The notes: generated by a model from the sequence alone, not told the origin. A DNA stretch of 64,000 bases from Gemmatimonadota bacterium (GCA_016794805.1 JAEUJI010000033.1:4769-68768), one strand, 5' to 3'. Shown: positions 4,168-63,745, numbered from the stretch's first letter. Made by a program: numbers and translations.

Positions 4168-4169
4168 GA

Positions 4170-4209
4170 GGCGGTTGGGCGGTTGGGCGGTTGGGCGGTT
4201 GGGCGGTTA
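4170..4209 (+). repeat. tandem octamer array (GGCGGTTG)x4 plus GGCGGTTA
   Basis: Read directly from the sequence. It begins 3 nt after the acs stop codon. Confidence 0.95.
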
Positions 4210-4248
4210 GATTCGTGGCAGGATCAGTTCACCGGAATGGGACGTCTC

Positions 4249-10310: not shown

Positions 10311-10333
10311 CCCCCGTCTCGCCGAGCCGACCC

Positions 10334-41824: not shown

Positions 41825-42637
41825 CTAGAACGCGGCGCTCACCCCCACCGCCCCCGGCTCCAGCAGGAATCTCGGCGCCGAGATCCCGAACACCCGCCAG
41901 CGCCCGTTCATCAGCTTGACGCTGGTGATCCCGACCAAGGCGCCGGCCAGGACGTCACTCCCCCAGTGCCGGTTGTCGTTGAGGCGGGACCAGCTGGTGA
42001 GGCCGGCGGCCCCGTAGAGCAGGACCGTCGCGGGAGTGGAGTGCAGCTCGTCGCCGACGCCCGTCGCGAGCGCGAAGGCCATGGCGGTGTGCCCCGAGGG
42101 CCAGGAGTCCCGGTTCGAGAAGGGGGTGAACTCGAAGGCGTCCCCGGTTTCCGCAGGCCGCCGCCGCCCCACGAGCGGCTTGAGCAGGTTGGTGACGACC
42201 GCGGCCGTCAGCAGCCCCGCGGTCATCCGCCCGCCGGCCCGGGTCACCCGGTCATCTCCCAGGATCACTCCGGCGGCGATGGTCCCCAGCGCGGGCACGG
42301 CGTACACGGTGGGCTCGCCCATCCGCTTGAACACCCGGGCGACGTCGTCCTTCCCCTCGCTGCGGTGGGCCTGGAGTTCCTCCCGCAGCGACTCATCGCT
42401 CAGGGAGACGAGCGCGACCGCACCCATGGCGCCGAGCCCGTGGTACCAGCGCACGGCGGCCGGAGCCCCGGCGCGGGTCGGGACGAGTGCCGGCCTCGCG
42501 AACACCGGCGCAGGACCGGACCCGAGGTCCCAGCGCGGCAGGGGGGCGGGGCGGACCTGGCCCGCCAGTCCGCCGCCCAGCAGCACGACCAGGGCGAACA
42601 GGGTGGCCGACGGACGCGGGCTCAAGTTGCGCGGCAT
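41825..42637 (-). CDS. PAP2-family phosphatase
   Basis: KPLVGRRRP, WPSGHT and SRLNDNRHWGSD form the tripartite PAP2 motif. Confidence 0.85.
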   Translation of the reverse strand: MPRNLSPRPSATLFALVVLLGGGLAGQVRPAPLPRWDLGSGPAPVFARPALVPTRAGAPAAVRWYHGLGAMGAVALVSLSDESLREELQAHRSEGKDDVARVFKRMGEPTVYAVPALGTIAAGVILGDDRVTRAGGRMTAGLLTAAVVTNLLKPLVGRRRPAETGDAFEFTPFSNRDSWPSGHTAMAFALATGVGDELHSTPATVLLYGAAGLTSWSRLNDNRHWGSDVLAGALVGITSVKLMNGRWRVFGISAPRFLLEPGAVGVSAAF

Positions 42638-42683
42638 GGCGGCAATCTAGTACCTTCGTGCGACCCGAAACCATTCATTAATT

Positions 42684-44919: not shown

Positions 44920-45639
44920 ATGAGTGCTGACGCCGCGACGAGCACCAATCCGTCCGTCCTCGAGGATTTTGTCGACCTCCTGTATCAGCCCGCGGCAGTC
45001 TTCGAGCGCCGGCGGGAGACCGTGGCCTTTGGCCTCGCGATCGTGCTCCTGACGGTGCTGAGCGCGGTGGTGTTCTTCGCGACCAAGTCGGGATTCGACC
45101 CGGTGCTGGACGTGATGGTGAAACAACAGACCGCCGAAATCCTGCGAGCCAATCCGACGCTCACGCCGGAACAACTGGCCGCCAGCTCCGGCATGATGAA
45201 GGGCGGCATCATCGGAACAATGCTGGCGTACCCGCTGATCATCCCATTCCTGGCCGGACTGCTGATGTGGGTGGTGGGCAAGTTCTTCGACAGCCGGATG
45301 GCGATCGGCGCCGCCATCATGGTCGCCACCTACAGCTACGTGCCCCGGTTCATCGGGTTCATCGTGGCGAGCCTGATGGCGGTCCTGCTCCCCGAGGACC
45401 AGATCACCAGCTTCTTCAGCATCTCGCTCAGCCCCGCCCGGTTCCTGGACCCCGCCACCCATTCGATCGGGGTCATGTCGCTGCTGGCGCGGCTGGACCT
45501 CTTCCTCTTGTGGCAGACGTTTGTCGCGGGCGTCGGCGTGTCCGTCCTCGGCGGAGTCTCCCGCGGCCGGGGGATGACCGTTGCCCTCCTCGTCTGGCTG
45601 CTCGGCTTCCTCCCGCTGATCCCCGCCCTGCTCAGGTAG
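44920..45639 (+). CDS. Yip1-family integral membrane protein
   Basis: Five TM helices with a Yip1/DUF1282-like layout. Confidence 0.65.
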   Translation: MSADAATSTNPSVLEDFVDLLYQPAAVFERRRETVAFGLAIVLLTVLSAVVFFATKSGFDPVLDVMVKQQTAEILRANPTLTPEQLAASSGMMKGGIIGTMLAYPLIIPFLAGLLMWVVGKFFDSRMAIGAAIMVATYSYVPRFIGFIVASLMAVLLPEDQITSFFSISLSPARFLDPATHSIGVMSLLARLDLFLLWQTFVAGVGVSVLGGVSRGRGMTVALLVWLLGFLPLIPALLR

Positions 45640-45662
45640 GCTGGCAAGGACCAGTCGGCGCC

Positions 45663-45688
45663 GGGGCGGCCCCACCCGGGGCCGCCCC
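45663..45688 (+). terminator. GC hairpin terminator
   Basis: GGGGCGGCCCC-ACCC-GGGGCCGCCCC followed by TTGCCGTT. Confidence 0.5.
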
Positions 45689-45796
45689 TTGCCGTTACCG
45701 GGCTAACTCGCTCCTTGCCGGCTGACGAACCGGCCGGTACGTTGAACGCCCCCGCCCCACTGCCGGCGTCCGGCCACCGGGGCGGCCAGCGCCCAC

Positions 45797-48700
45797 ATGC
45801 CACCATCCCGCTCCCCCGAAGCCGCCGAGCCTGGCGGTTCCCAGCCCGCGTTGCTGCGCACCCTGGGCGAGGCCCGCGTGCTCAGCCCCGACGGACTGCG
45901 CGAGCTGCTCGGTCCGGGCAAGCCGTTGGCGCTGCTCGCGTACCTGGCCTGTTCCCCACGGCAGAGCGCCACCCGCGAGCACCTGGTGGACCTGCTCTGG
46001 TCCGACCTCGAGCCCGACCGCGGGCGTCACGCCCTGCGCCAGACCGTCTGGTACCTGCGGCAGCTGTTCGGCACCGATGCCCTGACCGGCCGGGGAGGCG
46101 AACTCACGCTGCTCGCGCCCATTGCGGTGGATCGGGTCGAATTCCTGGCGGCGGTTGAACGGGGGGACCTGCTGCGGGCCGCCGAGCTCTACCAGGGGGA
46201 TTTCCTGGGGGGCTTCGCGGCCCCGGGTAGCATCGAGTTCGAGCACTGGGCGGATGTCGAGCGGCAGCGGTTGCGGTCCGTCTTCCTGCGCACCGCCGAG
46301 ACCGTTGCGCGGCAGTGGCTGAATGCGGGGCGGGTGCGGGAAGCCCAGCAGTTGGCCCGCCGCGCCCGCGATGCCGACCCGGCAAGCGAGAGCGCCTGGC
46401 GCCTGCTGTTCGAGGCCATCCAGCAGGGCGAGGACCGCCTGGCGCTCACCATCGAAGCCGATCAGTTCGCGGAACGGATGACGTCCCTGGGCCGGACGCC
46501 GGAGCCCGCGACCCGGATCCTCCTGGCCCGCGAGCGGCGTACCGATCAGGGCGAGCCTCCTGCGCAGGATGCGCCGGGTCTGGTCGCCGAGCTGATCGGG
46601 CGGGAGCGGGAGTTCGCCGCCATCGTGAGCGGGTGGCAGGGCGCGCGCGCCAGTACCCGGCACCTGCACATCTCCGCCCCCGCAGGATTGGGGAAGTCCC
46701 GGCTGCTGAACGACGTGGCGGCCCGGCTCGCCACCCTCGGCGCCCGAGTGGTGCTGCTCCGGGCCAACCCCGGACAGCGGGAGATCCCGTTCAGCTTCCT
46801 GGCCGAGCTGGCGGGTCGCCTTGCGGAATTGCCGGGCGGCGCGGGCATCTCCCCCGCGACCGCCGGCGCCCTGGTGGCGCTCAACCCGACGCTGTCCGCG
46901 CGCTACGTCCAGCCCGCCGATCCCGCCACCGGCGCCGAGGCCCTGCGCCGCCGCTGCTCCGCCATCACGGAGCTGCTGGAGGTCGTGGCGGAGGAGCAGC
47001 GCCTCTCTCTGCTGCTCGACGACCTGCACTGGCTCGACCCGGCGTCCCGGCAGGCGCTGAGCGGGGTGCTCCCGACGCTGCGCGCGCCCGGCGCCCTCCT
47101 GGTCACCGCCGCCCGGCCGGTGCCAGGCGCCGAACTGGGGGGCGAGGGCACCGAGCGGCTCTCCCTGGCCCCCCTCACGCCCGAACAGGTCCGGGCGCTC
47201 GTCACCAGCCTGGCGGCGCTGCCGCCGGCGCCCTGGGCCCAGAACCTCCCGGCGGCACTGGCCCGGAGCACCGGTGGCTCACCGCTGCTGGTGCTGGAGA
47301 CCCTGCAACTGGTGATGGACCGTGGGTGGCTCGGCGTCACGGCCGGGGCATGGCACTGCGAAGCCCCGGCGGAGCTGGCGCGGGTGCTCGAGGAAGGCAG
47401 CGCCCTCCGTCACCGGCTGGAGGAACTCGATGCCAACGACCGATGGGTGCTTGCCCTGCTGGCGCACGCGGGCATTCCGCTGGACGGGGACACGATTGTC
47501 AGGACATCCGGCCGGCCCCCGCACGCGGTGCTGGAGGTGCTGGGCCGGATGGAGCAGCGCGGCTTCGTGCATCGGGTCGGGGATCGCTGGCAACCGGCGC
47601 ACGACGAGATCGCCGCCGATGCGCTGGCCCTGACCGACCCGGCGACCAGCCGCGCCGCACACCTTGGCCTGGGCCGCGCACTGGTGGATGGCGCCATGGT
47701 CGGTCGTGAGCGGTTGCTGCGAGCCGGCCGGCATCTCGAGGCGGCGGGGGCGCAGGCGGAGCTCTCGGGGCTGTTTGCCCGGTACCTCCGGCTGGTGCGG
47801 GGCCAGGGCGACGGGCGACGGGTGGGAGAGGTGGCGCACGAGTTCCTGGGCGATGCCGCGCCGCCCGCCGCGGTCACGGCGCTGGTCCGCGGCATCCCGC
47901 TCTGGAGCCGGGTGCGCTACAGCAGCGGGTGGGTGGCCGCGGCGGCGCTGTTGGCGATCGGGGTCGCGCTGAGCGGGTTTCTCCTGTTCCGGCCGGCGCC
48001 TGGCCCGGACATGGTGCTGCTCTTCACGGCGGAGATGCGCCTGCCGCGCGGGCGTGCGCTGCGCGTGGATCTCCGGGAGGATGGGTGGCGGGCCGGCGCC
48101 CCGATCGATCTCCGGAGTGCGAAACCGGTGTCGCTACCTGGCTCCAGGCCGGGGGTCGTGGAGATGGCCGCATCTCCCGACGGGCGCGAGTGGATCTTCA
48201 ATCGGGCTGACACCGGGGCAACGACGTTTGATCTCTACCTCCGCACCGCCGCGGGCGCCGAGCGACGGCTTACCCACTTCCGCGGCGACGATGGCGGCGC
48301 GGCATGGGCGCCGGACGGCAAGAGCATTGTGTTCTATTCATCGCAATGGAGTCCGCCGGAGGCGGACAACTACGATCTGGCCCTCATGGACCTCGCGACC
48401 GGGGCGGTCACCCACCTCACGATCGGTCGGTCGGCGGACCGGCACGCCCGGTTCTCGCCCGACGGCACCCTGGTCGGATTCCACCGGACCTACGACGATG
48501 AGGAGCCGGCCTTCTGTACCGTCTCCCGCATCGGCGGCCGCCAGCCGACCTGCTACCGGCCAGCGGGGTACACGGCCACCGGATTCATCGGGTGGCTGGA
48601 CAGCCGCTACGTCCTGCTCGCCGCCGACGCGCAGGGGGAGTACGTCCTGCTGCGCTATGACATCGCCACTGGGGCGACGCTGCTCCTGGAACAGCAGGTT

Positions 48701-49843
48701 CAACAAGTAGACCTCAGCCCCGATGGTCACTGGCTCGCCTGGCTGTTGGAGGACCCCGAGAGCGGAGATGCCTCCTGGTTCGTCTCCCCAGTGGAGGACC
48801 TCTCCCGACGCCGGCAGGTCTTCCTGCCCGGCTCGCAGAGCACCTACTTTCGGGTCTGGATCAACCCGCCGCAGGCGGCCAGGCGTGAGGCGGCACCTCC
48901 CATCCTCAGGAGCATCCGGATCAGGGCCCCCGATACCCTCCGGACGGGCGCATCGTACCTGTTGCGCGTCCTCGGGTCGGATCAGCGCGGCCGGCCGACA
49001 CCGGTCCCCGCGATCCGGGGCTGGACCAGTTCGGACCCCCGGGTGGTCTCGGTGGATACCGCCGGGGTGGCGCTGGCGCGGGATAGCGGCGGCGCCTGGG
49101 TCGGGGTGGATGTGGCAGGCCTGTTGCGCGACTCGGTCCGGCTCCGGGTGCGGCCCCACCGCGACTCGATCCTCTTCCAGGAAGACTGGTCGGCCGGCAT
49201 CAGCCGCCAGTGGATCGCGTTCGGCAACCCGTGGCCGAGCCTCGCCCGTGGACCCGGGGACACGGCCGCGTTCCACAACCGTGGGGATGGGAAGTTCCCC
49301 AGCGGCGCCTTTACCCGGGCGCATTGGACCGCGGAAGGAGGACTGGGCATGGAGGTGATGGTCTCCTGGCGCATCACCCGCGGACAGTGGCAGATCGGCG
49401 ACGTGAGCCTGGTCGGCGGCCTGGACTCGGCCCTGGCGGGCGACTGGGATTTCGTGACCAACGCCATGCCCATCAGCGATGACATTCAGTTGCGATCCTG
49501 TGGCTTTGCCTACCCCGATGGCGAGGGGCCCCTGGGGCGCCGCCGGGTCTGGGTGGGCGCCGGGTCGAGAGGACGGCACGTGCCGGTGGACTCCACGCTG
49601 GGTGACGGGGCATGGCGCCAGGTGAGAATCCAGATCTTCGAGGACGGCCGGTGCGGCTTCGCCATCAATGGCCGGCCGGTGTGGCTCTCCCGCCAGCCGG
49701 TGCCGGTCGCCCTGCCGTTTGCCATCCGCCTGGGACAGTCCTCCGCCGGCACCGAGATCCTCCATGGCCCGATCGTAGCGTGGCGGGGCGTGCGCGACGA
49801 CGTGCAATGGGACCTGCTCCAGGATTCGGCCGGGACCCGGTGA
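45797..49843 (+). CDS. membrane-spanning SARP-family regulator: wHTH+BTAD, AAA/STAND ATPase, TM helix, PD40 (TolB-like) repeats, Big_2, jelly-roll C-terminus
   Basis: LALLAYLA...REHLVDLLW (OmpR-type wHTH) and BTAD (LYQGDFL...ESAWRLL). Walker A SAPAGLGKS and Walker B LLLDDLHWLD. TM helix WVAAAALLAIGVALSGFLLF (about 47930-47990). Four xSPDG repeats. Big_2-like IRAPDTLRTGASYLLRVLGSD...SSDPRVVSVD. Confidence 0.85.
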   Translation: MPPSRSPEAAEPGGSQPALLRTLGEARVLSPDGLRELLGPGKPLALLAYLACSPRQSATREHLVDLLWSDLEPDRGRHALRQTVWYLRQLFGTDALTGRGGELTLLAPIAVDRVEFLAAVERGDLLRAAELYQGDFLGGFAAPGSIEFEHWADVERQRLRSVFLRTAETVARQWLNAGRVREAQQLARRARDADPASESAWRLLFEAIQQGEDRLALTIEADQFAERMTSLGRTPEPATRILLARERRTDQGEPPAQDAPGLVAELIGREREFAAIVSGWQGARASTRHLHISAPAGLGKSRLLNDVAARLATLGARVVLLRANPGQREIPFSFLAELAGRLAELPGGAGISPATAGALVALNPTLSARYVQPADPATGAEALRRRCSAITELLEVVAEEQRLSLLLDDLHWLDPASRQALSGVLPTLRAPGALLVTAARPVPGAELGGEGTERLSLAPLTPEQVRALVTSLAALPPAPWAQNLPAALARSTGGSPLLVLETLQLVMDRGWLGVTAGAWHCEAPAELARVLEEGSALRHRLEELDANDRWVLALLAHAGIPLDGDTIVRTSGRPPHAVLEVLGRMEQRGFVHRVGDRWQPAHDEIAADALALTDPATSRAAHLGLGRALVDGAMVGRERLLRAGRHLEAAGAQAELSGLFARYLRLVRGQGDGRRVGEVAHEFLGDAAPPAAVTALVRGIPLWSRVRYSSGWVAAAALLAIGVALSGFLLFRPAPGPDMVLLFTAEMRLPRGRALRVDLREDGWRAGAPIDLRSAKPVSLPGSRPGVVEMAASPDGREWIFNRADTGATTFDLYLRTAAGAERRLTHFRGDDGGAAWAPDGKSIVFYSSQWSPPEADNYDLALMDLATGAVTHLTIGRSADRHARFSPDGTLVGFHRTYDDEEPAFCTVSRIGGRQPTCYRPAGYTATGFIGWLDSRYVLLAADAQGEYVLLRYDIATGATLLLEQQVQQVDLSPDGHWLAWLLEDPESGDASWFVSPVEDLSRRRQVFLPGSQSTYFRVWINPPQAARREAAPPILRSIRIRAPDTLRTGASYLLRVLGSDQRGRPTPVPAIRGWTSSDPRVVSVDTAGVALARDSGGAWVGVDVAGLLRDSVRLRVRPHRDSILFQEDWSAGISRQWIAFGNPWPSLARGPGDTAAFHNRGDGKFPSGAFTRAHWTAEGGLGMEVMVSWRITRGQWQIGDVSLVGGLDSALAGDWDFVTNAMPISDDIQLRSCGFAYPDGEGPLGRRRVWVGAGSRGRHVPVDSTLGDGAWRQVRIQIFEDGRCGFAINGRPVWLSRQPVPVALPFAIRLGQSSAGTEILHGPIVAWRGVRDDVQWDLLQDSAGTR

Positions 49844-49919
49844 CTCTGGCCCCGGACGGGGCTGGGCGCTAACCTCAAGGCGTCCCCACCGGGCCTGCAC
49901 CCCCCTCGCCAGGTTCACC

Positions 49920-50189
49920 ATGAAGCGCTCCACCATCATCACGATCCTGTTCGTGGTCGCCTTCGGCGCCCTGCTCCTGTTCAACACCCTCTCGGCGCAG
50001 AAGCACGAGTGCAGCGTCTGCGTCGAGTTCCACGGCCGCCGGAACTGCGCCACCGCCTCCAACGAGACGGAGGAAGCCGCGCTTCGGGCCGCCCAGACCA
50101 CGGCCTGCGGCACGATCGCGAGCGGCATGGACCAGTCCATCGCCTGCGACCGCACCCCGCCGATCTCCAAGCAGTGCAAGACCCGGTGA
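49920..50189 (+). CDS. small exported Cys-rich protein (89 aa)
   Basis: N-terminal TM/signal ITILFVVAFGALLLF and 6 Cys in the mature part (CSVC...C...C...C...C). Confidence 0.5.
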   Translation: MKRSTIITILFVVAFGALLLFNTLSAQKHECSVCVEFHGRRNCATASNETEEAALRAAQTTACGTIASGMDQSIACDRTPPISKQCKTR

Positions 50190-50241
50190 GCCGCTGAGGA
50201 CGGGGGCTGCCCCCGCCCGCGGCGCGCCCGGGTCCCGATCC

Positions 50242-51597
50242 ATGCGCTTCCCCCACCCGCTGGTCCTCCTGCTCGGCTGTCTCGGCCTGGCCGCGGCCGC
50301 GAGCCACCTGCTCCCGGCGGGGCAGTATGAACGCCGCGAGGATCCCGTCACCGGTCGCAGCGTGGTGGTGGCCGGCACCTACCATCGCGTGGAGCCGGCG
50401 CCGGTCGGGGCCTTCCGCGCCCTGGTGGCGATCCCCCGGGGCATGGCCGACGCGGCCAGCGTCATCTTCTACGTCTTCCTGGTGGGCGGGGCCTTCGCGG
50501 TCGTGGAGCGCACCGGCGCCTCCACCCGGCTGGTGCAGCGGCTGGTGGCCGGGCTGGGGGAGGCCGGCGCCATGGTCATTCCCCTCGCCTGCCTCGCGTT
50601 CGGGCTGGGCGGCGTGCTCATCCAGATGCAGGAAGAGCTGATCGCCTTCGTCCCGGTGCTGCTGCTGCTCACCGCCCGCCTCGGGTACTCCCCGCTCATC
50701 GCCTGCGCCATGAGCATCGGGGCGGCCGCCGTCGGCGCCGCGTTCAGCCCGGTCAATCCCTTCCAGGTCGTGATCGCGCAGAAGGTGGCGGACCTGCCGC
50801 CCCAATCGGGACTCGGTTTCCGGCTGGTCTTCCTGGCCCTCGCCATGGGATTGTGGACCATCGGCACGATGCGCCATGCCGCGCGGACCCGCGTCCCCGC
50901 CTCCGACCGTCCCGCCACGGCCGATCCGGCGGACACCGAACGGGCGGGGACAAGGCCCGCCCTTACAGACTGGATCATCCTCGCCCTCGTGGCGGCCACC
51001 TTTGTGCTGTTCATCGTGGGCGCGCGGCGGTGGGGCTGGGACTTTCCCGACTTCAGCGCCCTCTTCTTCCTGATGGGCGCCGCGGTGGGGATGATCGGCC
51101 GGCTCGGCGTCTCCGGCACCGCGGAGGCCTTTGTCGAAGGATTTCGCAGCCTCGCCTTCGCCGCGCTGCTGATCGGCTTCGCCCGGGCGATCTACGTCGT
51201 GCTCAATGACGGGATGATCATCGACACGATTGTCCAGGGTCTTTTTGCCCCGATCGCCGGGCTGCCGGTGGCGCTCTCCGCCGTCGGCATGATGGCGCTC
51301 CAGGCGGTGCTCCACATCCCGGTCCCCAGCACCAGCGGCCAGGCGGTGCTCACCATGCCCGTGCTGGTGCCGCTCTCCGACCTGCTGGGGCTGTCGCGCC
51401 AGGTCACGGTTCTCGCCTACCAGTACGGCGCCGGACTCTGCGAACTCCTTACCCCGACCAACGGCGCCCTCATGGCCATGCTGGCCGCCACCGGGGTCCG
51501 CTACGAGGAATGGTTCCGTTTCCTCCGGGGCCTCCTCGCGCTGCTGTTCGGGCTTGGCGGCCTGGCTCTCCTCGCGGGCATCGCCCTCAGGCTGTAG
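50242..51597 (+). CDS. yfcC: YfcC-family (DcuC-like) membrane transporter
   Basis: LPAGQYERREDPVTGRSVVVAGTYHRV...IFYVFLVGGAF is a YfcC-type N-terminus. Multi-TM. Confidence 0.78.
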   Translation: MRFPHPLVLLLGCLGLAAAASHLLPAGQYERREDPVTGRSVVVAGTYHRVEPAPVGAFRALVAIPRGMADAASVIFYVFLVGGAFAVVERTGASTRLVQRLVAGLGEAGAMVIPLACLAFGLGGVLIQMQEELIAFVPVLLLLTARLGYSPLIACAMSIGAAAVGAAFSPVNPFQVVIAQKVADLPPQSGLGFRLVFLALAMGLWTIGTMRHAARTRVPASDRPATADPADTERAGTRPALTDWIILALVAATFVLFIVGARRWGWDFPDFSALFFLMGAAVGMIGRLGVSGTAEAFVEGFRSLAFAALLIGFARAIYVVLNDGMIIDTIVQGLFAPIAGLPVALSAVGMMALQAVLHIPVPSTSGQAVLTMPVLVPLSDLLGLSRQVTVLAYQYGAGLCELLTPTNGALMAMLAATGVRYEEWFRFLRGLLALLFGLGGLALLAGIALRL

Positions 51598-51699
51598 CCC
51601 GCCGAAACGCCCCGAAACGCGCCGGGGCGGCATCCCGGCCGCCAAAAGGTGACACCGAGGCGGCGGCGCGTTCCCGGCCAAATTTCCAACTTCAATTCC

Positions 51700-51711
51700 A
51701 TCAACAGGTTA
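51700..51711 (+). promoter_or_regulatory. IHF-core-like site
   Basis: ATCAACAGGTTA matches ATCAA-N4-TTR. It sits in an AT-rich stretch 26 nt upstream of the -24 element. Confidence 0.3.
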
Positions 51712-51736
51712 CATTCCCGATGCCGGCACTCCCGGC

Positions 51737-51752
51737 TGGCACCAAGGTTGCT
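51737..51752 (+). promoter_or_regulatory. sigma-54 promoter (consensus-perfect core)
   Basis: TGGCAC-CAAGG-TTGCT, 59 nt upstream of ATG 51811. Confidence 0.55.
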
Positions 51753-51810
51753 CCTTACCCGAAACGGTGGCTGGAACCTTTCGGCTCAGCTTCCGATAAG
51801 AGAGGGTAGA

Positions 51811-52242
51811 ATGAGCGAACTCATCATTCGGGAAATGGAAAACGGCGAGGAATTCGCGGACTGGTTTGCGGACCTCACCGAACGGGAAGAGGCCGCGTCC
51901 GGCGAGCCGATTCACCTCGACGAGCACTACCTGATCCTCAGCAACGCCATTGGCGACTGGATCGGGGGCCTTCGCTACAGCCTCCGCGGCGGCGTGGCGC
52001 ATCTCACCGAGATCGCGGTCCGGGCCGAGGAACGGCACCAGGGGCACGCCCATCGGCTGCTGGAGGCGTTCGAGCAGCATGCCTCGCAGCTCGGGGCGCA
52101 CCTCATCGAGTTCTGGACTGATGACGTGCACGGCGAACCGGAGTTCCTGGCGCATGGCTGGCACCGGGTACTGCGCCGGCCCGGGTATCAGGGTGGCCGC
52201 ACCTGGTACCTGATGGAGAAGCGTCTGGCTCCACCGGTCTAG
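51811..52242 (+). CDS. GNAT-family N-acetyltransferase
   Basis: IAVRAEERHQGHAHRLLEAFE fits the R-x-x-G-x-A CoA-binding motif; 143 aa. GAGAGGG ribosome-binding site. Confidence 0.72.
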   Translation: MSELIIREMENGEEFADWFADLTEREEAASGEPIHLDEHYLILSNAIGDWIGGLRYSLRGGVAHLTEIAVRAEERHQGHAHRLLEAFEQHASQLGAHLIEFWTDDVHGEPEFLAHGWHRVLRRPGYQGGRTWYLMEKRLAPPV

Positions 52243-52350
52243 CGCCCCCTCCGCACGACGCCTATTCTTCCGCTCAGCCCAACGCTTTCCGCTGGCGGCG
52301 CGCGCAACCCGCTCGCCGCCTTCTTCCTTCAGCAAGGGTGGTCCGCGCCG

Positions 52351-53325
52351 ATGTCCCTGACCGATCGCGGCCGCGCGTTGCTCTCCAAGATCGAGGTGCT
52401 CCGGGACCTCGAGTCGCGGGTGCGAGAGCTGATGACGGCACACATCGAGAAGCGTCCCCTCTGGTTTCCGCACGACCTGCTGGGCCCCCGGCCGGACCAG
52501 GACCCGGACCGCCACGTGGCGGAGCTGCGCCGCAGGGCCGAAGGGATCCCCGACCCGGCCCGCGCCGCGCTGTCCCTCAACATGCTCACCGAGGAGGGGC
52601 TGCCCCACTTCCACCGGCTCCTCGCGGTGCACCTCGGCGACGACAGCCACTGGCGGGAATGGAACAATCTCTGGACCGCCGAGGAGGACCGGCACGGCGT
52701 CATCCTGCACGACTACATCCGGGATACCCGGCTGGTGAACCAGCGCCGGCTTGAGGAAATGCAGTTCAGCTACCTGCAAAGCGGCTTCGATCCTGACTGG
52801 GACAAGGACCCCTACCGGGTGTTCGTCTACACCACGCTGCAGGAGCGGGCCACCCAGCAGTCCCACAGCGAGACCGGCCGGCTGATCGGCGAATACGAGC
52901 CGCTGCTGGGCGAGGTGCTCACCAACGTGGCGACGGAGGAAGCGCGGCACTTCAGCTTCTACCGCACGGTGTTCGAGGAGATCCTGGCCCGGGACCCTGA
53001 CCAGGCGCTTCACTCTGCTGCGCAGATCATGCCAAGCATCGAGATGCCGGGCCACACCATGCCCGGGTTCCGTGAGCTGGCCGACGTGATCCGCCGGTCG
53101 GGGATCTACGGACCACGCGACTATCTGCGCATCGTCCAGGAGCAGATCCGCTACTGGCAGATCGAGACCCTGACCGGGCTCAACGACCTGGGACGGCGGG
53201 CGCAGGAGAAGATCATGGGCATCCCCGCCCGGCTGCAGCGGATCGCGGAGCACATCGAGACCAAGAGCCGTGCCAAGACGTTCAGCTTCGACCTGGTGTT
53301 CAATCGTGAATTCGCGATGGAGTAG
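52351..53325 (+). CDS. soluble acyl-ACP desaturase (di-iron, FA_desaturase_2 family)
   Basis: WTAEEDRHG, LQERATQQSH and ATEEARHFSFY are the EXXH di-iron motifs. Confidence 0.88.
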   Translation: MSLTDRGRALLSKIEVLRDLESRVRELMTAHIEKRPLWFPHDLLGPRPDQDPDRHVAELRRRAEGIPDPARAALSLNMLTEEGLPHFHRLLAVHLGDDSHWREWNNLWTAEEDRHGVILHDYIRDTRLVNQRRLEEMQFSYLQSGFDPDWDKDPYRVFVYTTLQERATQQSHSETGRLIGEYEPLLGEVLTNVATEEARHFSFYRTVFEEILARDPDQALHSAAQIMPSIEMPGHTMPGFRELADVIRRSGIYGPRDYLRIVQEQIRYWQIETLTGLNDLGRRAQEKIMGIPARLQRIAEHIETKSRAKTFSFDLVFNREFAME

Positions 53326-54800: not shown

Positions 54801-58507
<3,707 letters not shown>

Positions 58508-58511
<4 letters not shown>

Positions 58512-60337
58512 GCACCCTGCGCGAGCTGATTGCCGACGGCCGGACCCACGTCTTCGACGGGGCGATGGGCACCATGCTCTATGCCCGCGGCATCTTCCTC
58601 AACATCTGCTACGACGAGCTGGTGCTCAAGCAGCCGGACCTGATCCGCGACATCCACCGCGAGTATGTGCGGGCCGGGGCGGAGCTGCTGGAGACCAACA
58701 CCTTCGGCGCCAACCCCGTGAAGCTGGCGCAGTACGGCCTGGCGGGGGAAACCGAGACGATCAACCGGGTGGCCGCGAGCCTGGCGCGCGACGCCGGGGG
58801 CGACCGCGCCTCGGTGCTCGGCGCCCTCGGGCCGCTGGGGATCCGCATCGAGCCGTTCGGCGAGATGGCGGTGGCGGAGGCCCGCGCCGCCTTCGTCCGC
58901 CAGGTGGACGGGCTGCTCGCCGGGGGAGTGGACGGGTTCATCATCGAGACCTTCAGCGACGTGGAGGAGGTCCGCGCCGCGTACGAGGCGATCCGGTCCC
59001 GGACCGACCTGCCGGTGGTGGCGCAGATGACCGTCGCGACCGATGGCAAGACCTACTTCGGCACCGAGCCGGCCACCTTCGGTCCCTGGCTGCAGGCGAT
59101 GGGCGCCGACGTGATCGGCGTCAACTGCTCGGTGGGGCCGCACGGGGTGCTGGAGGCGATCGAGCAGCTGGCCCGGGTGGTGACGGTGCCGCTCTCCGCC
59201 CAGCCCAACGCCGGCCTCCCCCGCGATGTCGGGGACCGCAAGATCTACATGGCCAGCCCCGAGTACATGGCGAGCTACGCCCGGCGCATGGTCGAGGCGG
59301 GGGCGCGGTTCGTGGGCGGCTGCTGCGGCACCACCCCGGACCACATCAAGGCGATGGTCGGGTACGTGAAGAGCGTGACCCCGCGCCACGTCACCCAGTT
59401 CTCCGCCCAGCCCGCCAAGGTGGAGCCGCTGGAGCCGGTGCCGCTGGCGGAGCGCTCCCGGTTCGGCGCCAGGCTCGCGCGGGGGGAGTTCATCACCACG
59501 GTGGAGATCGTGCCGCCCAAGGGCGTGGACCCGGGGCCGATGTTCGACCAGGTGCGCGAGCTCAAGGCGGCGGGGGTGGATGCGGTCAACGTCCCCGACG
59601 GGCCGCGGGCCCAGAGCCGGATGGGCGCGCTCCTGTCCGGGCTGCTCATCCAGCGCGAACTGGGCATGGAGCCGGTGGTCCACTACGCCTGCCGGGACCG
59701 GAACCTGCTGGGCATGCTCTCCGACCTGCTCGGCGCCGCCGCGAGCGGCATCCGCAACCTGCTGATCGTCACCGGCGACCCGCCCAAGATGGGCCCCTAC
59801 CCGGACGCCACCGCGGTGTTCGACATCGACAGCATCGGCCTCACCAACCTGGTGAGCCGGCTCAATCACGGACTCGATCCCGGTGGCAACGCCCTGGGCG
59901 GGACCACGAAGTTCGTGGTGGGCGTCGGGGTCAACCCGGCGGCGCCGGACCTCGAGCGCGAGCTGCGCCGCTTCGCGTGGAAGGTGGACGCCGGCGCCGA
60001 GTACGCCATGACGCAGCCGGTGTTCGACATCGAGCAGCTGGACCGCTTCCTGGCGCGGGTGGAGTCGTTCCGGGTACCGATCATCGCGGGCATCTGGCCG
60101 CTGGTGTCGCTCCGGAACGCGGAGTTCCTGGCCAATGAGGTCCCGGGCGTGACGGTGCCACCCGTCATCCTGGAGCGGATGCGCGACGCCTCGGCCCGCG
60201 GCAAGGAAGAAGCGCTGCAGGAGGGGATCCTGATCGCGCGGGAGATGCTGACGGCGGTGCGGAGCCGGGTCCGCGGGGTGCAGGTGGCGGCCCCGATGGG
60301 CCGCGCCGGCGTGGCGGTGCAGGTGATCGCGCCGTAG
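58508..60337 (+). CDS. bifunctional homocysteine S-methyltransferase / 5,10-methylenetetrahydrofolate reductase (YitJ-like fusion)
   Basis: The N-terminal region is FDGAMGTML...[11 protein letters not shown] (Hcy-binding, Zn Cys pair). The C-terminal region is MTHFR (VPDGPRA...LLIVTGDPP). GTGA overlap with metH. Confidence 0.88.
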
Positions 60338-60350
60338 GGGCGGCGGGGGG

Positions 60351-61046
60351 CTATTCGGAGCGCAGCCGGTAGCCCACCCCGGGCTCGGTGAGGAGCAGCC
60401 GCGGCTGGGTCGGATCGGCCTCCAGCTTGTGGCGCAGCTGGGTGATGTACACCCGGAGGTAATGGGTCTGGGTGATGGCGTTCGCGCCCCAGACCTCCCG
60501 CAGCAGGTGGCGGTGGGTCAGCACCTTCCCCGCATGCCGGACCAGCGTCACCAGCAGCTTGTACTCGTTGGGGGTGAGGTGCACCGTCACCCCGTCCCGC
60601 GACACCTCCCGCCGGGCCAGGTCCACCCGCAGCCCGCCAGTCTCGAAGACCGGCTCGTCGGCCGCCCCGACCCGGGCGGCGTGGCGGAGCGCCACCCGCA
60701 TCCGCGCCAGCAGTTCGTCCACCCCGAACGGCTTGGTGAGGTAGTCGTCCGCGCCGGCATCCAGCGCCGTCACCTTGTCGCGCTCCTGCCCGCGGGCCGA
60801 GATGATGATGATGGGGGTTCGGCTCCACTCCCGGATCTGCCGGGTCAGGTCGAGCCCGTCGCCATCGGGGAGCCCGAGGTCGAGGAGGATGAGGTCGGGG
60901 TTCCGCGCGGCCGCCTGCGCCAGCCCCTCCCGCGCGGTCGGCGCCTCGATCAGCTGGTACTCCTGGGTGCCGAAGGCGGCGCGCAGGAAGCGGCGCATCT
61001 CGGGCTCGTCTTCGATGAGCAGGATGGTGGGAGCGGCCACGCTCAC
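60351..61046 (-). CDS. kdpE: OmpR-family response regulator KdpE
   Basis: REC plus winged-helix (LTPNEYKLLVTLVRHAGKVLTHRHLL). Overlaps the kdpD stop. Confidence 0.85.
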   Translation of the reverse strand: MSVAAPTILLIEDEPEMRRFLRAAFGTQEYQLIEAPTAREGLAQAAARNPDLILLDLGLPDGDGLDLTRQIREWSRTPIIIISARGQERDKVTALDAGADDYLTKPFGVDELLARMRVALRHAARVGAADEPVFETGGLRVDLARREVSRDGVTVHLTPNEYKLLVTLVRHAGKVLTHRHLLREVWGANAITQTHYLRVYITQLRHKLEADPTQPRLLLTEPGVGYRLRSE

Positions 61047-63745
61047 GAGGCGGCCTCCGATTCCTGCGGGATCGGGGCCGGCGCCGGCCCCGAGAGCGGC
61101 AGCAGGAAGCGGAACGCGGCGCCCCCACCCTCCCGGTTCTCCGCCCAGAGACGGCCGCCGTGCGCCAGGATGATGCCCCGGGAGATCGTCAGCCCCAGCC
61201 CGATGCCGCGGCCGGGTTCCGCACCCGCCCCACGCTGGAACTTCTCGAAGATCCGTTCCTCCTCCCCAGCCGGGAGGCCCGGGCCGCGGTCGGCGACCGT
61301 CACCGTCACCGCCTCGGGCGCCGCCGCGGCGGACACCTCAATCGGGGTTCCCTCCTGCGTGTACTTGGCGGCGTTTTCCAGCAGGTTGATGAACACCTGC
61401 TCCAGCAGGACGGCGTCGAGCGGCACCAGGGGCAGGTCGGGCGGCAGCGCGACCGTGACGGGGTGCCGGGCCAGGCGGTCTCCCATCCGGATGAGGGCCA
61501 CGCCCACGGCGTCCTCCAGGGGCTGCCATTCCTTCTGGACCTGAAGGCTGCCGGTCTCCAGCCGGATCATGTCAAGCAGGTTCCGGATCAGCCGGTTCAT
61601 GCGCGCGGACTCGTCCAGGATGGAATCGAGCAGCTCCGCGCGCACCGGCTCGGTCATGCCGTCTCCCGCGCGGCGCAGGCTGCTCGCGGCGCCGGTGATC
61701 ACCCCGAGCGGAGTGCGGAGGTCGTGCGACAGCGAACTCAGGAGTGACGTGCGCAGCCGCTCCGCCTCGGTCTCGAGCCGTGCCCGCTGGGCTCCTTCCT
61801 CCAGCGCCACGCGCTCGAGGGCGACGGCCACCTGGCCGGCGAAGGTCTCGAGCAGGTGGCGCCGGGACGGGTCCTGGAAGGAGCTCATGTCCGGCGCGGC
61901 GAGCACCAGGACGCCGAGCACGCCCGCCCCACCGGTGAGCGGCAGGTGCAGCCCGACCGCGGCCGGCAGCGTGGCGGTCCCGATCCCCGCCAGCTCGCCA
62001 CGATGAAAGACCCAGTCCGCGACGCTCAGCTCCTTGGCGTCGAGGACCGGCAGCGCGGCCACCGGGGCCAGCGGCGCGAGCCGCCCCTCGGGGCCGGGGA
62101 CCACCAGCTGGCATTCGCAGCCGAAGCTGTCCCGCAGGTGGCGCCGCGCGATCGCCACGATCTGGTCCCGGGCCCGGGCCGTGCCCAGGTCGCGGCTGAG
62201 GGCGTAGAGGGCGGCGGTCCGCTGCTCGCGCTCGCGCGCCAGCTGCGCCTGTTCGCGGTGGCGCAGGGTGTAGCCGCTGATGACCAGCGCCACGACCAGC
62301 ATGACCAGGAAGGTCAGGATGTAATTGAGGTCCGAGACCGCGAACGTCAGGTACGGCGGCACGAACATGAAGTCAAAGGCGGCGATGCTGAGCAGCGCCG
62401 CGAGCAACGAGGGTCCCCGGCCGCAGCGGGATGCCACGATCATGGCGCCGAGCAGGTAAATCATGGCCACGTCGGTGACGCTGAGGCGCTGGAACACCAT
62501 CCAGCCGGAGAGGGTGCAGAGCCCGACGACCAGCGCGGCCAGTCCATACTCGCGCGCCGGCGCCGGGCGGGGCGGCCCCTGCCGGCGCGGCGCGGCCCGC
62601 TCCTCGCCCGCATCGCCGCTCATGACGTAGACATCCACGTCGCCGCTGCCCCGCACGAGCCGGTCCAGGGTGCTGCCGAGGAGTTTGTCCCGCCAGGTGG
62701 GGTGGGTCGGCTTGCCGACGAGGATCCGGGTGGCGTTGTTGACGGCGGCGTAGGCCAGCACCTCCTCCGCCACGCCGGTGCCGGCAACCGTCACGGTCCG
62801 GGCCCCGGACTCCTCCGCCAGCCGCATGGTCTCAACCAGCTCGGCCCGCTGCGCGTCCGTGAGGGCGGCGCCGGGCGTTTCCACGTGCAGCACAATCCAC
62901 TCGCAGCGGAGGCTTGTGGCCATCCGGCGGCCCGCCCGCACCAGTCGCCGGCCGGCGGGGTTGGAGCCGACGCAGACCAGCAGCCGTTCCCCCGCCGGCC
63001 AGATGTCCCGGATGCCGTGCTCCGCCCGCCAGCCGCGCATCTGGGCGTCCACCCGTTCCGCCATGCGGCGCAGCGCCAGTTCCCGCAGCGCGATGAGATT
63101 GCCCTTCTTGAAGAACTGCTCCCGGGCGCGCGCGGCCTGCTCGGCGAAGTACACCTTGCCTTCGGCGAGGCGCTTGAGCAGGTCGTCGGGGGTGAGGTCC
63201 GCCAGCTCCACGTCGTCGGCCTGGTCGAAGACCTCGTCGGGCACGGTTTCCCGGACCAGGACGCCGGTGATCTGGGCGACCACGTCGTTCAGGCTCTCGA
63301 GGTGCTGGACGTTGAGGGTGGCGTAGACCGAGATGCCGGCGGCGAGCAGGTCGGCCACGTCCTGGTACCGGCGCTCGTGGCGGGACCCTGGCGCGTTGGT
63401 GTGGGCCAGCTCGTCCACCAGGATGATGCTGGGCCGCCGGGTGAGCGCGGCATCCAGGTCGAACTCGGAGAGCGCGATGCCCCGGTACGTGATGGGGCGG
63501 CGGGGCAGCACCTCGAGCCCTTCGACCAGGGCCGCCGTATCGGCCCGGCCATGCGTCTCCACCACGCCCACCACCACGTCGACCCCTTCCCGGCGGCGAG
63601 CGCGGGCCTCCTCCAGCATGGCGAAGGTCTTCCCGACGCCGGGGTTGGCGCCAAAGAAGATCTTGAGACGCCCTCGCGCGGCCCTGGCTTCTTCGGCCTG
63701 GAGCCTCGCGAGCAGCGCTTCGGGATCGGGACGCGTGCCGGTCAC
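61043..63745 (-). CDS. kdpD: sensor histidine kinase KdpD
   Basis: KdpD N-domain (GANPGVGKTFAML), Usp domain, 4 TM, GAF, H-box SHDLRTPL, and HATPase; 900 aa. Confidence 0.92.
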   Translation of the reverse strand: MTGTRPDPEALLARLQAEEARAARGRLKIFFGANPGVGKTFAMLEEARARRREGVDVVVGVVETHGRADTAALVEGLEVLPRRPITYRGIALSEFDLDAALTRRPSIILVDELAHTNAPGSRHERRYQDVADLLAAGISVYATLNVQHLESLNDVVAQITGVLVRETVPDEVFDQADDVELADLTPDDLLKRLAEGKVYFAEQAARAREQFFKKGNLIALRELALRRMAERVDAQMRGWRAEHGIRDIWPAGERLLVCVGSNPAGRRLVRAGRRMATSLRCEWIVLHVETPGAALTDAQRAELVETMRLAEESGARTVTVAGTGVAEEVLAYAAVNNATRILVGKPTHPTWRDKLLGSTLDRLVRGSGDVDVYVMSGDAGEERAAPRRQGPPRPAPAREYGLAALVVGLCTLSGWMVFQRLSVTDVAMIYLLGAMIVASRCGRGPSLLAALLSIAAFDFMFVPPYLTFAVSDLNYILTFLVMLVVALVISGYTLRHREQAQLAREREQRTAALYALSRDLGTARARDQIVAIARRHLRDSFGCECQLVVPGPEGRLAPLAPVAALPVLDAKELSVADWVFHRGELAGIGTATLPAAVGLHLPLTGGAGVLGVLVLAAPDMSSFQDPSRRHLLETFAGQVAVALERVALEEGAQRARLETEAERLRTSLLSSLSHDLRTPLGVITGAASSLRRAGDGMTEPVRAELLDSILDESARMNRLIRNLLDMIRLETGSLQVQKEWQPLEDAVGVALIRMGDRLARHPVTVALPPDLPLVPLDAVLLEQVFINLLENAAKYTQEGTPIEVSAAAAPEAVTVTVADRGPGLPAGEEERIFEKFQRGAGAEPGRGIGLGLTISRGIILAHGGRLWAENREGGGAAFRFLLPLSGPAPAPIPQESEAAS

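Follow-up and report, generated by a model that had tools for sequence, protein, structure and literature searches.

The window, i.e., the 64,000-nucleotide stretch of Gemmatimonadota DNA that was analyzed, carries a gene encoding a 1348-aa protein, whose domains and flanking elements are collected in Table 1. GC3 was 0.83-0.94 across all 300-nt blocks of the ORF, codon bias was uniform along its length, and the reading frame was unbroken around position 47900. P0001, identical in sequence, bears the annotation "AAA family ATPase [Gemmatimonadetes bacterium]," and the identical protein occurs on three other assemblies. Searches returned more than 100 full-length homologs (1300-1400 aa, 39-87% identity, domains in the same order), all of them in Gemmatimonadota. 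The preliminary description had read the ORF as a single chain and had raised the concern that two genes, one for a cytosolic SARP-ATPase and one for a secreted propeller protein, might have been joined by a frameshift near 47900 as an assembly or annotation artifact. Nothing was found in favor of such a fusion, although certain metagenomic relatives occur as fragments, and we exclude it since the >100 independent full-length homologs are collinear. It is further refuted by the uniform GC3 over the junction, by a transmembrane (TM) segment at the same place in 50/50 homologs, by the identical proteins on other assemblies, and by the ten shorter matches to the C-terminal domain that were scanned, which fit N-truncated copies of the full architecture (6/10 begin inside AAA_16). 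The ORF is one intact, conserved Gemmatimonadota gene.

Table 1. Features of the 1348-aa protein gene and its upstream region.
Feature	Position (nt)	Strand	Residues (aa)	Detail or basis
Hairpin	45663-45688			After the upstream Yip1 gene
Promoter-like element	45714..45743	+		CTTGCC-N18-TACGTT, 54 nt upstream of ATG
Whole gene	45797..49843	+		ATG start; 1348 codons plus stop
OmpR-type winged helix-turn-helix (wHTH)	45845..46129	+	17-111	AF2; Foldseek to AfsR
Recognition helix			73-91	ARHALRQTxWYLRQ
BTAD helical domain, completing the SARP head	46130..46546	+	112-250	Pfam; AfsR structural match
STAND nucleotide-binding domain (NBD)	46583..47131	+	263-445	AAA_16
NBD motifs				Walker A G297-x-G299-K300-S; Walker B D408-D409; sensor-like R440
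STAND helical and winged-helix domains (HD, WHD)	47132..47602	+	winged helix, 536-602	GGSPLL at 493-498 (GxP-type)
Helical arm, NOD to membrane	47603..47917	+	603-707 (~100 aa)	AF2 secondary structure; conservation
Single TM helix (predicted)	47930..47989	+	712-731	Kyte-Doolittle 2.46
TolB-like beta-propeller, predicted periplasmic, probably six-bladed	47996..48886	+	734-1030	AF2; Foldseek; profile; PD40
Big_2 Ig-like domain	48887..49150	+	1031-1118	Profile matches
C-terminal beta-sandwich	49151..49840	+	~230 aa	No known sequence family

Neighboring genes in the window encode MgtE, Yip1, DcuC, and a desaturase, i.e., housekeeping functions. An earlier suggestion that adjoining genes might be targets or partners of the protein was not borne out, since the 89-aa secreted Cys-rich gene downstream, which belongs to a conserved Yip1-...-desaturase-YggT-MetH block, also occurs in that block without the regulator (L092), and the paralogs of the regulator have unrelated neighbors. 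The Cys-rich gene was found in two further contexts and was lacking beside the paralogs examined, and no conserved target gene was found. Upstream of the ATG, the promoter-like element presumably serves as the gene's own promoter. Of 21 regions upstream of family genes, 11 contained the corresponding pattern, TTGC-N17-21-TA[CG][CGA]TT (typically CCTTGC...GTACCTTC); since it also precedes two unrelated plus-strand genes of the window, a general type of promoter is more probable than a SARP box. Direct repeats in the 21 family upstream regions showed no excess over shuffles.

At the N-terminus lies an OmpR-type wHTH followed directly by a BTAD, the SARP head that had been proposed previously. 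Pfam BTAD matched aa 125-242 with 31.4 bits and passes its cut-off of 22.1; Trans_reg_C matched aa 42-93 with 21 bits, under its cut-off of 26.2, and exceeded that cut-off (29.9 bits) in a protein of the sister subfamily described below. The wHTH region of the AF2 model had a pLDDT >90, Foldseek matched the SARP domain of AfsR (8hvr_I/8k60) over 253 columns (TMt 0.66, 25% identity), and the recognition helix is near-invariant among 50 homologs. Pfam and AF2 superposition together recover both modules by which the SARP family is recognized.

The head is followed by an NTPase of the STAND type, comprising a P-loop NBD with Walker A and B motifs, a GxP helical domain, and a His-bearing winged-helix domain. 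Pfam AAA_16 matched aa 265-435 (62.6 bits, E 8e-17), and Walker A (APAGLGKS) and Walker B (LLLDDLHWLD) are both present as had been quoted. G297, G299, K300, D408, and D409 do not vary across 114 sequences, and R440, GGSPLL (invariant columns G494, P496, and L497), and H602 are invariant in 50-114 homologous sequences. Residues 536-601 gave weak wHTH matches in Pfam and the PDB; the winged-helix domain ends within PAHDEI in an MHD-like motif of invariant H602 and D603 (conserved in at least 90%), and this histidine would contact ADP. With Foldseek, the NBD/NOD matched 6mfv, MalT (8bob), Apaf-1 (3sfz), CED-4, Avs3, plant NLRs, and a STAND-TPR protein.

Ahead of the membrane, where a helical region had been described, AF2 shows a ~100-aa helical arm (mean pairwise identity 0.38) with a conserved RRxGDxRR at about aa 666-675; Pfam and profile searches against the PDB detected no TPR in the protein. 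The AF2 model of the cytoplasmic part reached a pTM of only 0.53, and therefore the packing between its domains is uncertain. The TM helix lies where it had been placed before and is the sole strong hydrophobic segment of the protein, the next best elsewhere scoring 1.34 on the Kyte-Doolittle scale. In 50 homologs, the net charge was +3.2 before and -0.3 after this segment, i.e., positive-inside, and conserved Cys residues sit in the C-terminal half, where their number is even in 92% of homologs. The topology is thus predicted to be N-in/C-out with one TM helix.

The predicted periplasmic half was modeled by AF2 with a pLDDT of 89.6 and a pTM of 0.80, and begins with a propeller that Foldseek matched to TolB (2w8b; E 5e-14, ~295 columns). 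Profile searches against the PDB also gave TolB (E 8e-24, ~19-20% identity), Pfam PD40 matched aa 823-849 with 39.6 bits, and S9 peptidases were among the matches of both Foldseek and the profile search. The preliminary description had counted four PD40 blades. A PD40 propeller is confirmed, but the count of four is not: four xPDG motifs are recognizable, yet the propeller is most likely complete, six-bladed, and TolB-like, six blades being favored because the model has ~23 beta-strands and superposes on TolB over ~295 columns. Cys907 and Cys919 of the propeller are invariant. The next domain, aa 1031-1118, gave profile matches to the Big_2 domains of LigA/LigB and to teneurin-like Ig domains, and Pfam Big_2/Ig_Eae matches in homologs likewise agree with the Ig-like Big_2 domain reported earlier.

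The C-terminal domain is confidently all-beta, as had been expected of a beta-sandwich. Its proposed lectin/LamG identity did not fare as well: it is weakly suggested by ConA/LamG-like jelly-roll folds at ranks 40, 41, and 49 of the structure matches, and the domain had no Pfam match and no PDB sequence match. C1235 is invariant and C1286 is conserved in at least 90%; E1129, D1164, E1186, and D1283 are also conserved. The domain has 704 representatives in 1.84 billion proteins, was always C-terminal among the 150 representatives listed, and, among the matches examined, has been seen only in the SARP-STAND-TM-propeller architecture.

TolB is the ectodomain's best structural and sequence match, and Big_2 and jelly-roll domains are common among cell-surface proteins. 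These observations would suit a structural or scaffolding protein of the envelope, whose ectodomain binds a Pal-like lipoprotein, peptidoglycan, or an outer-membrane component, with the cytoplasmic ATPase as anchor or organizer. We consider such a role very unlikely, as the N-terminal domain of TolB and a tol-pal gene context are both absent and conservation within the protein is highest in the wHTH recognition helix and BTAD. Mean pairwise identity was 0.53-0.54 for the wHTH, BTAD, and NBD versus 0.31-0.38 for the periplasmic domains. Since the head is most conserved, the DNA-binding head is argued to be the output.

In sequence comparisons, then, the cytoplasmic part is conserved and the sensor divergent. 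Against an 86% identical orthologue, dN/dS was 0.12 for the cytoplasmic and 0.27 for the periplasmic part, with 0.26-0.27 overall for the sensor; these ratios indicate purifying selection on both halves and not diversifying selection in the sensor. The family has also expanded: a single MAG contig carries at least three members, including a tandem pair. A sister subfamily has kept the SARP-STAND part, in most cases with a hydrophobic segment at about aa 705-750, and carries a different C-terminal domain of ~300 aa that is predicted to be periplasmic. The regulator is 50% identical to its L001 orthologue, versus 72-77% for MgtE, DcuC, and the desaturase; by this measure the regulator gene evolves faster than its neighbors. 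That pace, the expansion with divergent sensors, and the resemblance of the NOD to Avs3 and NLRs could all be expected of an envelope-surveillance or conflict STAND, whose periplasmic module would recognize a foreign protein, e.g., one from a phage or bacteriocin, and whose NOD would then oligomerize and trigger an Avs-type defense response. However, Avs-type anti-phage STANDs are marked by a defense model match, a toxic effector, and a defense island, whereas PADLOC gave no model match, the NCBIfam Avs2 model reached only E 0.18, the neighbors are housekeeping genes with no defense genes nearby, and what occupies the N-terminal "effector" position is a DNA-binding SARP head rather than a nuclease, protease, or pore. 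Together with the purifying dN/dS of the sensor, this makes a defense function still more remote.

We favor, with a probability of about 0.6, a membrane-spanning one-component STAND transcription activator of the AfsR/MalT type, in which a helical arm, one TM helix, and a sensor in the periplasm have taken the place of the cytosolic sensor. The whole is most likely a ToxR-like one-component system with an inserted STAND switch; domain order and topology signals agree with the earlier proposal of a membrane-bound regulator whose STAND switch lies between sensor and SARP head. In the resting state, the NBD-HD-WHD unit, or NOD, would keep ADP via the invariant WHD histidine and hold the SARP head in check. 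The signal would come from a ligand or partner in the periplasm, for which a peptide, a protein, or an envelope glycan is most plausible; by binding the propeller or beta-sandwich, it would change how the single-pass receptors are spaced or oligomerized. A lone TM helix cannot itself pass on a conformational change, and therefore the relay would need oligomerization or a partner. The signal would then travel via the TM helix and arm and open the NOD, ATP would replace ADP, and NODs would associate. SARP heads freed and paired in this way would bind at direct repeats that overlap a -35 element and, still at the membrane, recruit RNA polymerase, activating rather than repressing transcription, until ATP hydrolysis resets the switch. 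Since the sensors of paralogs within one genome diverge while the recognition helix is almost identical, different periplasmic cues may feed similar DNA sites.

The DNA-binding head lies ~600 residues from its membrane anchor, and proteolytic release could operate instead. The protein would then be an inactive, membrane-tethered precursor from which a periplasmic signal, through site-1/site-2 proteolysis, liberates a soluble SARP-STAND fragment acting like cytosolic AfsR. The single TM helix indeed leaves the whole AfsR-like unit (SARP, NOD, and arm; aa 1-707) on the side of the cytoplasm, and TolB/PD40 propellers are often associated with peptides or proteases, as in the S9 peptidase matches. 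Anti-sigma factors are an established case of regulated intramembrane proteolysis. RseP is reported to cleave the sigma-factor regulator FecR (PMC8144685). However, no protease gene is conserved beside family members, and conservation across the TM and juxtamembrane region is poor (0.25 identity), with no recognizable cleavage motif. ToxR-type regulators, moreover, are held to act while membrane-bound, and we regard release by proteolysis as unlikely.

As the preliminary description had supposed, no experimentally characterized protein of SARP-STAND-TM-propeller layout was found in the literature, and NCBIfam and Pfam hold no curated full-length model for the 1348-aa architecture. Among the closest parallels to the activator that we propose is AfsR of Streptomyces coelicolor (PDB 8hvr/8k60), a "large SARP" of SARP, NOD, and TPR, which shares the N-terminal wHTH and BTAD followed by a STAND NOD, with sequence similarity too low for detection by phmmer against the PDB. 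AfsR comes from Actinomycetota and is soluble with a cytosolic TPR sensor, whereas the Gemmatimonadota protein has, in place of TPRs, a periplasmic module of 615 aa that follows the ~100-aa arm and TM helix. The SARP head of AfsR is inhibited by its NOD together with the TPR, and the inhibition is lifted when ATP binds (PMC10936776); by analogy, the same logic of inhibition and relief would apply here. MalT of E. coli (PDB 8bob) shares the NBD-HD-WHD-arm order (Foldseek E 7e-9, TMt 0.65) but has a C-terminal LuxR-type HTH and a cytosolic maltotriose-binding sensor, instead of an N-terminal SARP-type head and an extracytoplasmic sensor. In MalT, inducer acting on the sensor drives multimerization. 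Its transcription activation needs ATP binding, not hydrolysis (PMC10936776).

ToxR, CadC, VtrA, and TcpP resemble the protein in having an N-terminal cytoplasmic OmpR-type wHTH, one TM helix, a C-terminal periplasmic sensor (a topology that is predicted here), and no phosphorelay. They differ in periplasmic fold and in their short wHTH-TM linker, where the 1348-aa protein has a BTAD and a STAND ATPase module of ~450 aa. VtrA is reported to be a membrane-bound regulator activated via oligomerization (PMC5693285). A co-transcribed periplasmic partner of the ToxS/TcpH/VtrC type, typical of such regulators though not universal, was not conserved in the family loci examined. BguR of marine Bacteroidota is reported to be a membrane-spanning one-component activator that likewise couples, within one polypeptide, a sensor in the periplasm to a DNA-binding output in the cell, but adjoins its polysaccharide-utilization target genes, whereas our family has no conserved neighbors (bioRxiv 10.64898/2026.01.10.698779). 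The likeness to TolB is limited to the PD40-type propeller (TolB residues ~172-370); TolB is a soluble periplasmic protein with an N-terminal alpha/beta domain and a tol-pal cluster, none of which apply here, and in the 1348-aa protein the propeller serves as ectodomain to a bitopic regulator. Finally, in typical STAND NTPases the C-terminal sensor (TPR, WD40, LRR, or SUPR) shares the compartment of the NOD, whereas the sole large C-terminal module here is predicted to be periplasmic, and it is this extracytoplasmic sensor after the TM helix that sets the 1348-aa protein apart from other STANDs.

The regulator gene (1348 codons) is a single ORF, as the preliminary description had proposed. GC3, calculated per 300-nt block to look for a frameshift near position 47900, was 0.83-0.94 in all blocks and ran smoothly through that position; since there is no break, there is no sign of two genes having been joined by a frameshift. 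We exclude a fusion artefact. At least 698 relatives came up in a protein search, one of them identical to the regulator of the window. The best 120 of these were nearly all 1300-1400 aa long (query coverage 96-100%, identity 39-87%), came from Gemmatimonadota MAGs and carried only the names "AAA family ATPase" or "DNA-binding SARP family transcriptional activator". The motifs quoted earlier, APAGLGKS and LLLDDLHWLD, are present in the regulator sequence. In an alignment of 50 sequences, G297, G299 and K300 of Walker A, D408 and D409 of Walker B, R440, three positions of the GGSPLL motif (G494, P496, L497), H602 and the periplasmic cysteines C907, C919 and C1235 were invariant; D603, which adjoins H602, and C1286 were each kept in at least 90%. 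Comparison with L006, the 86% identical orthologue, gave a dN/dS of 0.12 in the cytoplasmic and 0.27 in the periplasmic half, indicating purifying selection on both, and positive selection was not detected in the sensor (dN/dS 0.26-0.27). In the same pair the propeller segment showed 72% amino acid identity and a dS of 0.73, the rest of the gene having a dS of ~0.2-0.5, and this excess divergence could reflect recombination or segment exchange, beyond mere relaxed constraint.

The regulator was modelled as two separate halves from 55-row alignments. For the cytoplasmic half (aa 1-711; pLDDT 88.8, pTM 0.53), Foldseek comparison with the PDB retrieved the STAND-TPR protein 6mfv (E 3e-12), MalT (8bob; E 7e-9, TMt 0.65) and also Apaf-1, CED-4, Avs3 and plant NLRs, matches that indicate the canonical NBD-HD-WHD order in the regulator's NOD. 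The first ~255 residues matched the AfsR SARP domain of the transcription-initiation complexes 8hvr_I and 8k60 (253 columns, TMt 0.66, 25% identity). A single-sequence phmmer search of the PDB with the cytoplasmic half gave no match, and the links to AfsR and MalT are those of fold comparison. Judged by motif and fold, the residue H602, which closes the WHD together with D603, would occupy the position of the ADP-contacting histidine of STAND proteins (the "MHD" motif of plants). A helical arm of ~100 residues then runs into one strong hydrophobic segment (Kyte-Doolittle 2.46; next best in the protein 1.34), present at the aligned position in 50 of 50 sequences with just 25% conservation of its own sequence, which bears out the single TM helix originally placed at about 47930-47990. 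Across the 50 sequences, net charge was +3.2 in the 15 residues before this segment and -0.3 after it, and 92% had an even number of cysteines in the C-terminal half. Together, the helix position, charge bias and even cysteine number are the signatures to be expected if the protein is bitopic (N-in/C-out) and its ectodomain disulfide-bonded.

Coordinates of the regulator, its parts and associated features (nt positions are those of the window unless a homologue locus is named)
Feature	Position	Strand	Remarks
Regulator gene	45797-49843	+	
Trans_reg_C	aa 42-93		Pfam, sub-threshold
BTAD	aa 125-242		Pfam, above cut-off
AAA_16	aa 265-435		Pfam, E 8e-17
Winged helix	aa 541-595		Pfam, weak matches
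Helical arm	aa 603-707		
Hydrophobic segment	aa 712-731 (nt 47930-47989)		
PD40	aa 823-849		Pfam
Big_2 region	aa 1031-1118		Family profile; matches Big_2 domains of LigA/LigB and a teneurin-like protein
Ig-like	aa 1076-1112		Pfam, weak match
Propeller segment compared with L006	47996-48886		
89-aa ORF	49920-50189	+	Also L001 (50% orthologue) 10108-10377, L003 (48% orthologue) 10103-10372, L092 (locus with the 89-aa gene) 6001-6270
Upstream element, regulator	45714-45743		
Upstream element, unrelated genes	9404-9433; 42627-42660		
Hairpin after Yip1	45663-45688		
Hairpin after 89-aa ORF	50192-50224		
Kup K+ transporter	4799-6712	-	Ordinary chromosomal context
HAMP histidine kinase with sigma-54 activator response regulator	20564-23505	+	Ordinary chromosomal context
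MetH, then homocysteine-methyltransferase/MTHFR fusion	54801-60337	+	Ordinary chromosomal context
KdpD-type sensor kinase	61043-63745	-	Ordinary chromosomal context
Tandem family members	L002 1736-10065		
Propeller protein and two kinases	L003 1-5522		
Short beta-sandwich ORFs	L089 3544-6750; L090 ~4100-6620		

The periplasmic half (aa 732-1348) was modelled with a pLDDT of 89.6 and a pTM of 0.80. Its first ~295 residues superposed on TolB propellers (E 5e-14) and the family profile matched TolB with an E of 8e-24, so the TolB/PD40 type named in the preliminary description stands. The blade number of four given there probably does not; about 23 strands precede the Ig domain in the model and, together with the ~295-column superposition, they fit a complete six-bladed propeller better than a four-bladed one, a blade number taken from strands and superposition rather than counted from coordinates. 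For the last ~230 residues the model is all-beta with confidence, and they had no sequence relative in Pfam or the PDB, even with a profile of 23 sequences. Hints of a ConA/LamG-like jelly roll were weak (propeller-plus-lectin sialidases at high rmsd; BFVD ranks 40, 41 and 49), leaving the earlier lectin/LamG label unsupported. An exhaustive HMMER/phmmer scan of 1.84 billion representatives found 704 relatives of this domain, and it sits at the C-terminus in all of the 150 listed among them; exhaustive phmmer and profile searches with the domain returned only regulator-family members or fragments. Ten shorter relatives were scanned, six of which start inside AAA_16, three have just PD40 or Big_2 and one lacks a Pfam match; they look like N-truncated pieces of the regulator architecture. 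With its 704 representative clusters, the beta-sandwich makes up a domain family that is as yet unclassified and could be curated. Two long contigs, L089 and L090, have short ORFs with the beta-sandwich alone, located 3' of ORF fragments that at least in L089 (one with a weak AAA_22 match) could belong to the same gene. As stand-alone genes these ORFs were rejected, since they have the look of copies that are broken or frameshifted, possibly through long-read indel errors or as pseudogenes.

In a survey of one representative genome per species, full-length matches occurred only in Gemmatimonadota (Gemmatimonadales, Gemmatimonadaceae, Gemmatimonas), and in Chloroflexota, Actinomycetota, Myxococcota and others alignment was limited to the cytoplasmic SARP-STAND part. 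One 1.05-Mb MAG contig holds two family members (1365 and 1354 aa) in tandem (L002) and a third copy ~55 kb away (L024); the family is therefore paralogous within genomes, and it is locally expanded in this MAG. Mean pairwise identity was 0.53-0.54 for the wHTH, BTAD and NBD, 0.44-0.46 for the HD and WHD, 0.38 for the arm, 0.31 for the propeller, 0.33 for Big_2 and 0.38 for the C-terminal domain, and the recognition helix (ARHALRQTxWYLRQ) is almost invariant among paralogues. A conserved head joined to divergent periplasmic domains is what marks a sensor family whose output is conserved and whose inputs have diversified. Six proteins of a sister subfamily from the same phylum (L026, L030, L031, L033, L034 and L037; ~1010-1057 aa) keep BTAD and AAA_16 and end in a different ~300-aa domain without a Pfam match; in five of them a hydrophobic stretch lies around aa 705-750. 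This difference in the C-terminal domain indicates that the regulator chassis is modular, and the ~300-aa domain is probably a second type of periplasmic sensor on the same scaffold. The regulator family is a lineage-specific, expanded set of SARP-STAND proteins that span the membrane and end in a C-terminal domain of their own.

Building on the observed architecture, topology signatures, motif invariance and selection, our preferred reading (probability about 0.6) is that the regulator is a membrane-spanning AfsR-like SARP-NOD protein switched by a periplasmic cue; its ligand, relay, ATP dependence and DNA binding are what we infer. The AfsR-like SARP-NOD unit would be tethered via the arm and one TM helix to the periplasmic propeller, Ig domain and beta-sandwich, and a periplasmic ligand or partner would alter the association state of the bitopic protein. 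The NOD would then be let go from an ADP-locked state, ATP would bind, NODs would associate and the SARP heads would become paired on target promoters at the membrane. A relay of this kind, through oligomerisation, is favoured by the single-pass helix and is also how STAND proteins are natively activated. The main variant of this reading, proteolytic release of a soluble SARP-STAND fragment, seems unlikely to us. A role as an envelope scaffold is improbable, and a role in conflict or defence, for which PADLOC was negative, is slightly less probable again. Were the preferred reading wrong, the regulator would still be a conserved uncharacterised envelope protein, of less general interest.

Upstream of the regulator gene, at a distance of 54 nt, lies a CTTGCC-N18-TACGTT element that recurs before 11 of 21 family members. 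Its recurrent form is CCTTGC-N17-19-(C/G)GTAC(C/G)TTC, ~50-200 nt ahead of start codons, in the window and in upstream regions of L001, L002, L003, L006, L007, L011, L017, L020 and L024, with CCTTGC...GTACCTTC as the enriched version. Two unrelated genes of the window have the element ahead of them as well, so a generic promoter is the probable reading; the copy before the regulator would be the regulator's own promoter, of a kind typical of the lineage, rather than a SARP box, and the element may be the lineage's housekeeping promoter type, with TTGC as -35 and TAnnTT as -10. A sigma-70 consensus scan of 45300-52400 (70% GC) found nothing. A SARP box and autoregulation were rejected, as 7-mer direct repeats (spacing 10-12 or 21-23 nt) in 21 upstream regions showed no excess over shuffled controls, and alignment of the intergenic region between the regulator and the 89-aa gene revealed no conserved motif. 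Just past the Yip1 stop codon is an inverted repeat, GC-rich and perfect over 11 nt (GGGGCGGCCCC / GGGGCCGCCCC, 4-nt loop), terminator-like without a T tract, and a similar hairpin follows the 89-aa ORF.

The neighbours of the regulator are housekeeping genes, namely saccharopine dehydrogenase, PAP2, MgtE and Yip1 on the 5' side and, after the 89-aa ORF, DcuC/YfcC, acyl-ACP desaturase, YggT and MetH on the 3' side. Much of this synteny is kept in orthologues of 48-50% identity, and paralogues occur in unrelated contexts. The 89-aa protein is Cys-rich (up to six Cys), has a probable signal peptide, lacks a Pfam match and belongs to a tight family (142 clusters, lengths of 89-92 aa, identities of 54-96%) whose few named members are Gemmatimonadales. 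In L003 both Cys34 and Cys43 are Thr, and this joint replacement suggests a disulfide pair. The gene lies directly 3' of the regulator in the window and in six loci (L001, L003, L006, L018, L087 and L088). As an obligate ToxS/VtrC-like partner it was rejected: L092 has the order Yip1, 89-aa gene, acetyltransferase, desaturase, YggT, MetH without the regulator, L091 and L093 carry the gene in other, unrelated contexts, and it is missing beside regulator paralogues. The adjacency is therefore one of synteny, and the placement of the regulator between Yip1 and the 89-aa gene is confined to a sub-lineage. The suggestion that the small Cys-rich gene and yfcC are targets was likewise unsupported, as the synteny block exists without the regulator and paralogue contexts are unrelated; no conserved operon partner or candidate target was found in the neighbourhoods of the regulator, its orthologues and its paralogues. 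In L003, the 48% orthologue is preceded on its 5' side by two Ser/Thr protein kinases and a PD40/Tricorn-like propeller protein of 769 aa, an arrangement that recalls the AfsK-AfsR pairing and is not conserved in other loci.

The regulator's architecture is unusual and conceptually attractive, and all that we say of its function we infer. STAND/NLR-type switches have, to our knowledge, been studied as intracellular sensors with the ligand-binding domain in the ATPase's compartment. If the preferred reading is true, a cue from outside the cell can drive an ADP/ATP oligomerisation switch by way of one TM helix, and the family would provide a tractable bacterial model for transmembrane STAND coupling. 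Gemmatimonadota, a phylum abundant in soil and, as far as we know, little studied in its regulation, would also gain a major signalling family specific to this lineage. Somewhat short of an even chance, in our estimate, is the broader proposal of a first described class of transmembrane STAND switch, in which an ectodomain ligand would cause nucleotide exchange and NOD oligomerisation via one TM, rendering the SARP head active at the membrane, with a multi-paralogue Gemmatimonadota family converging on similar DNA sites; this would unite ToxR-type membrane one-component regulators with NLR/MalT-type ATP switches, so far known separately.

Full-text searching of the literature turned up no account of any such SARP or STAND regulator that spans the membrane, in agreement with the initial statement that no characterised example was known; NCBIfam, too, had no full-length model, giving partial and far-sub-threshold likeness only, to a TOMM kinase/cyclase STAND region and to TolB. 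In MalT, inducer binding to the sensor drives multimerisation, and the OmpR-type wHTH of ToxR-, CadC- and VtrA-type regulators can function while membrane-anchored. A 2026 STAND survey gives transcriptional STANDs only as soluble examples. VtrA is reported to be a membrane-bound regulator activated through oligomerisation (PMC5693285). The SARP head of AfsR is inhibited by the NOD and TPR domains until ATP or ATP-gamma-S binding lifts the inhibition; two heads then sit side by side as a dimer on direct repeats that overlap the -35 element, contacting sigma region 4 and core RNAP (PMC10936776). The regulator has the wHTH and BTAD that define a SARP, and the P-loop, GxP helical domain and WHD histidine of STAND NTPases; however, it differs from AfsR-type large SARPs in lacking TPRs, and departs from the usual STAND arrangement of sensor and NOD in one compartment. 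It is not TolB, because the N-terminal TolB domain and tol-pal context are missing. Unlike ToxR-type regulators, it has ~600 aa of BTAD, NOD and arm between the wHTH and the TM helix and no conserved periplasmic partner. The architecture and one-component logic of the preliminary description are supported, with an AfsR-like SARP-NOD unit, an arm, one TM helix and a periplasmic module.
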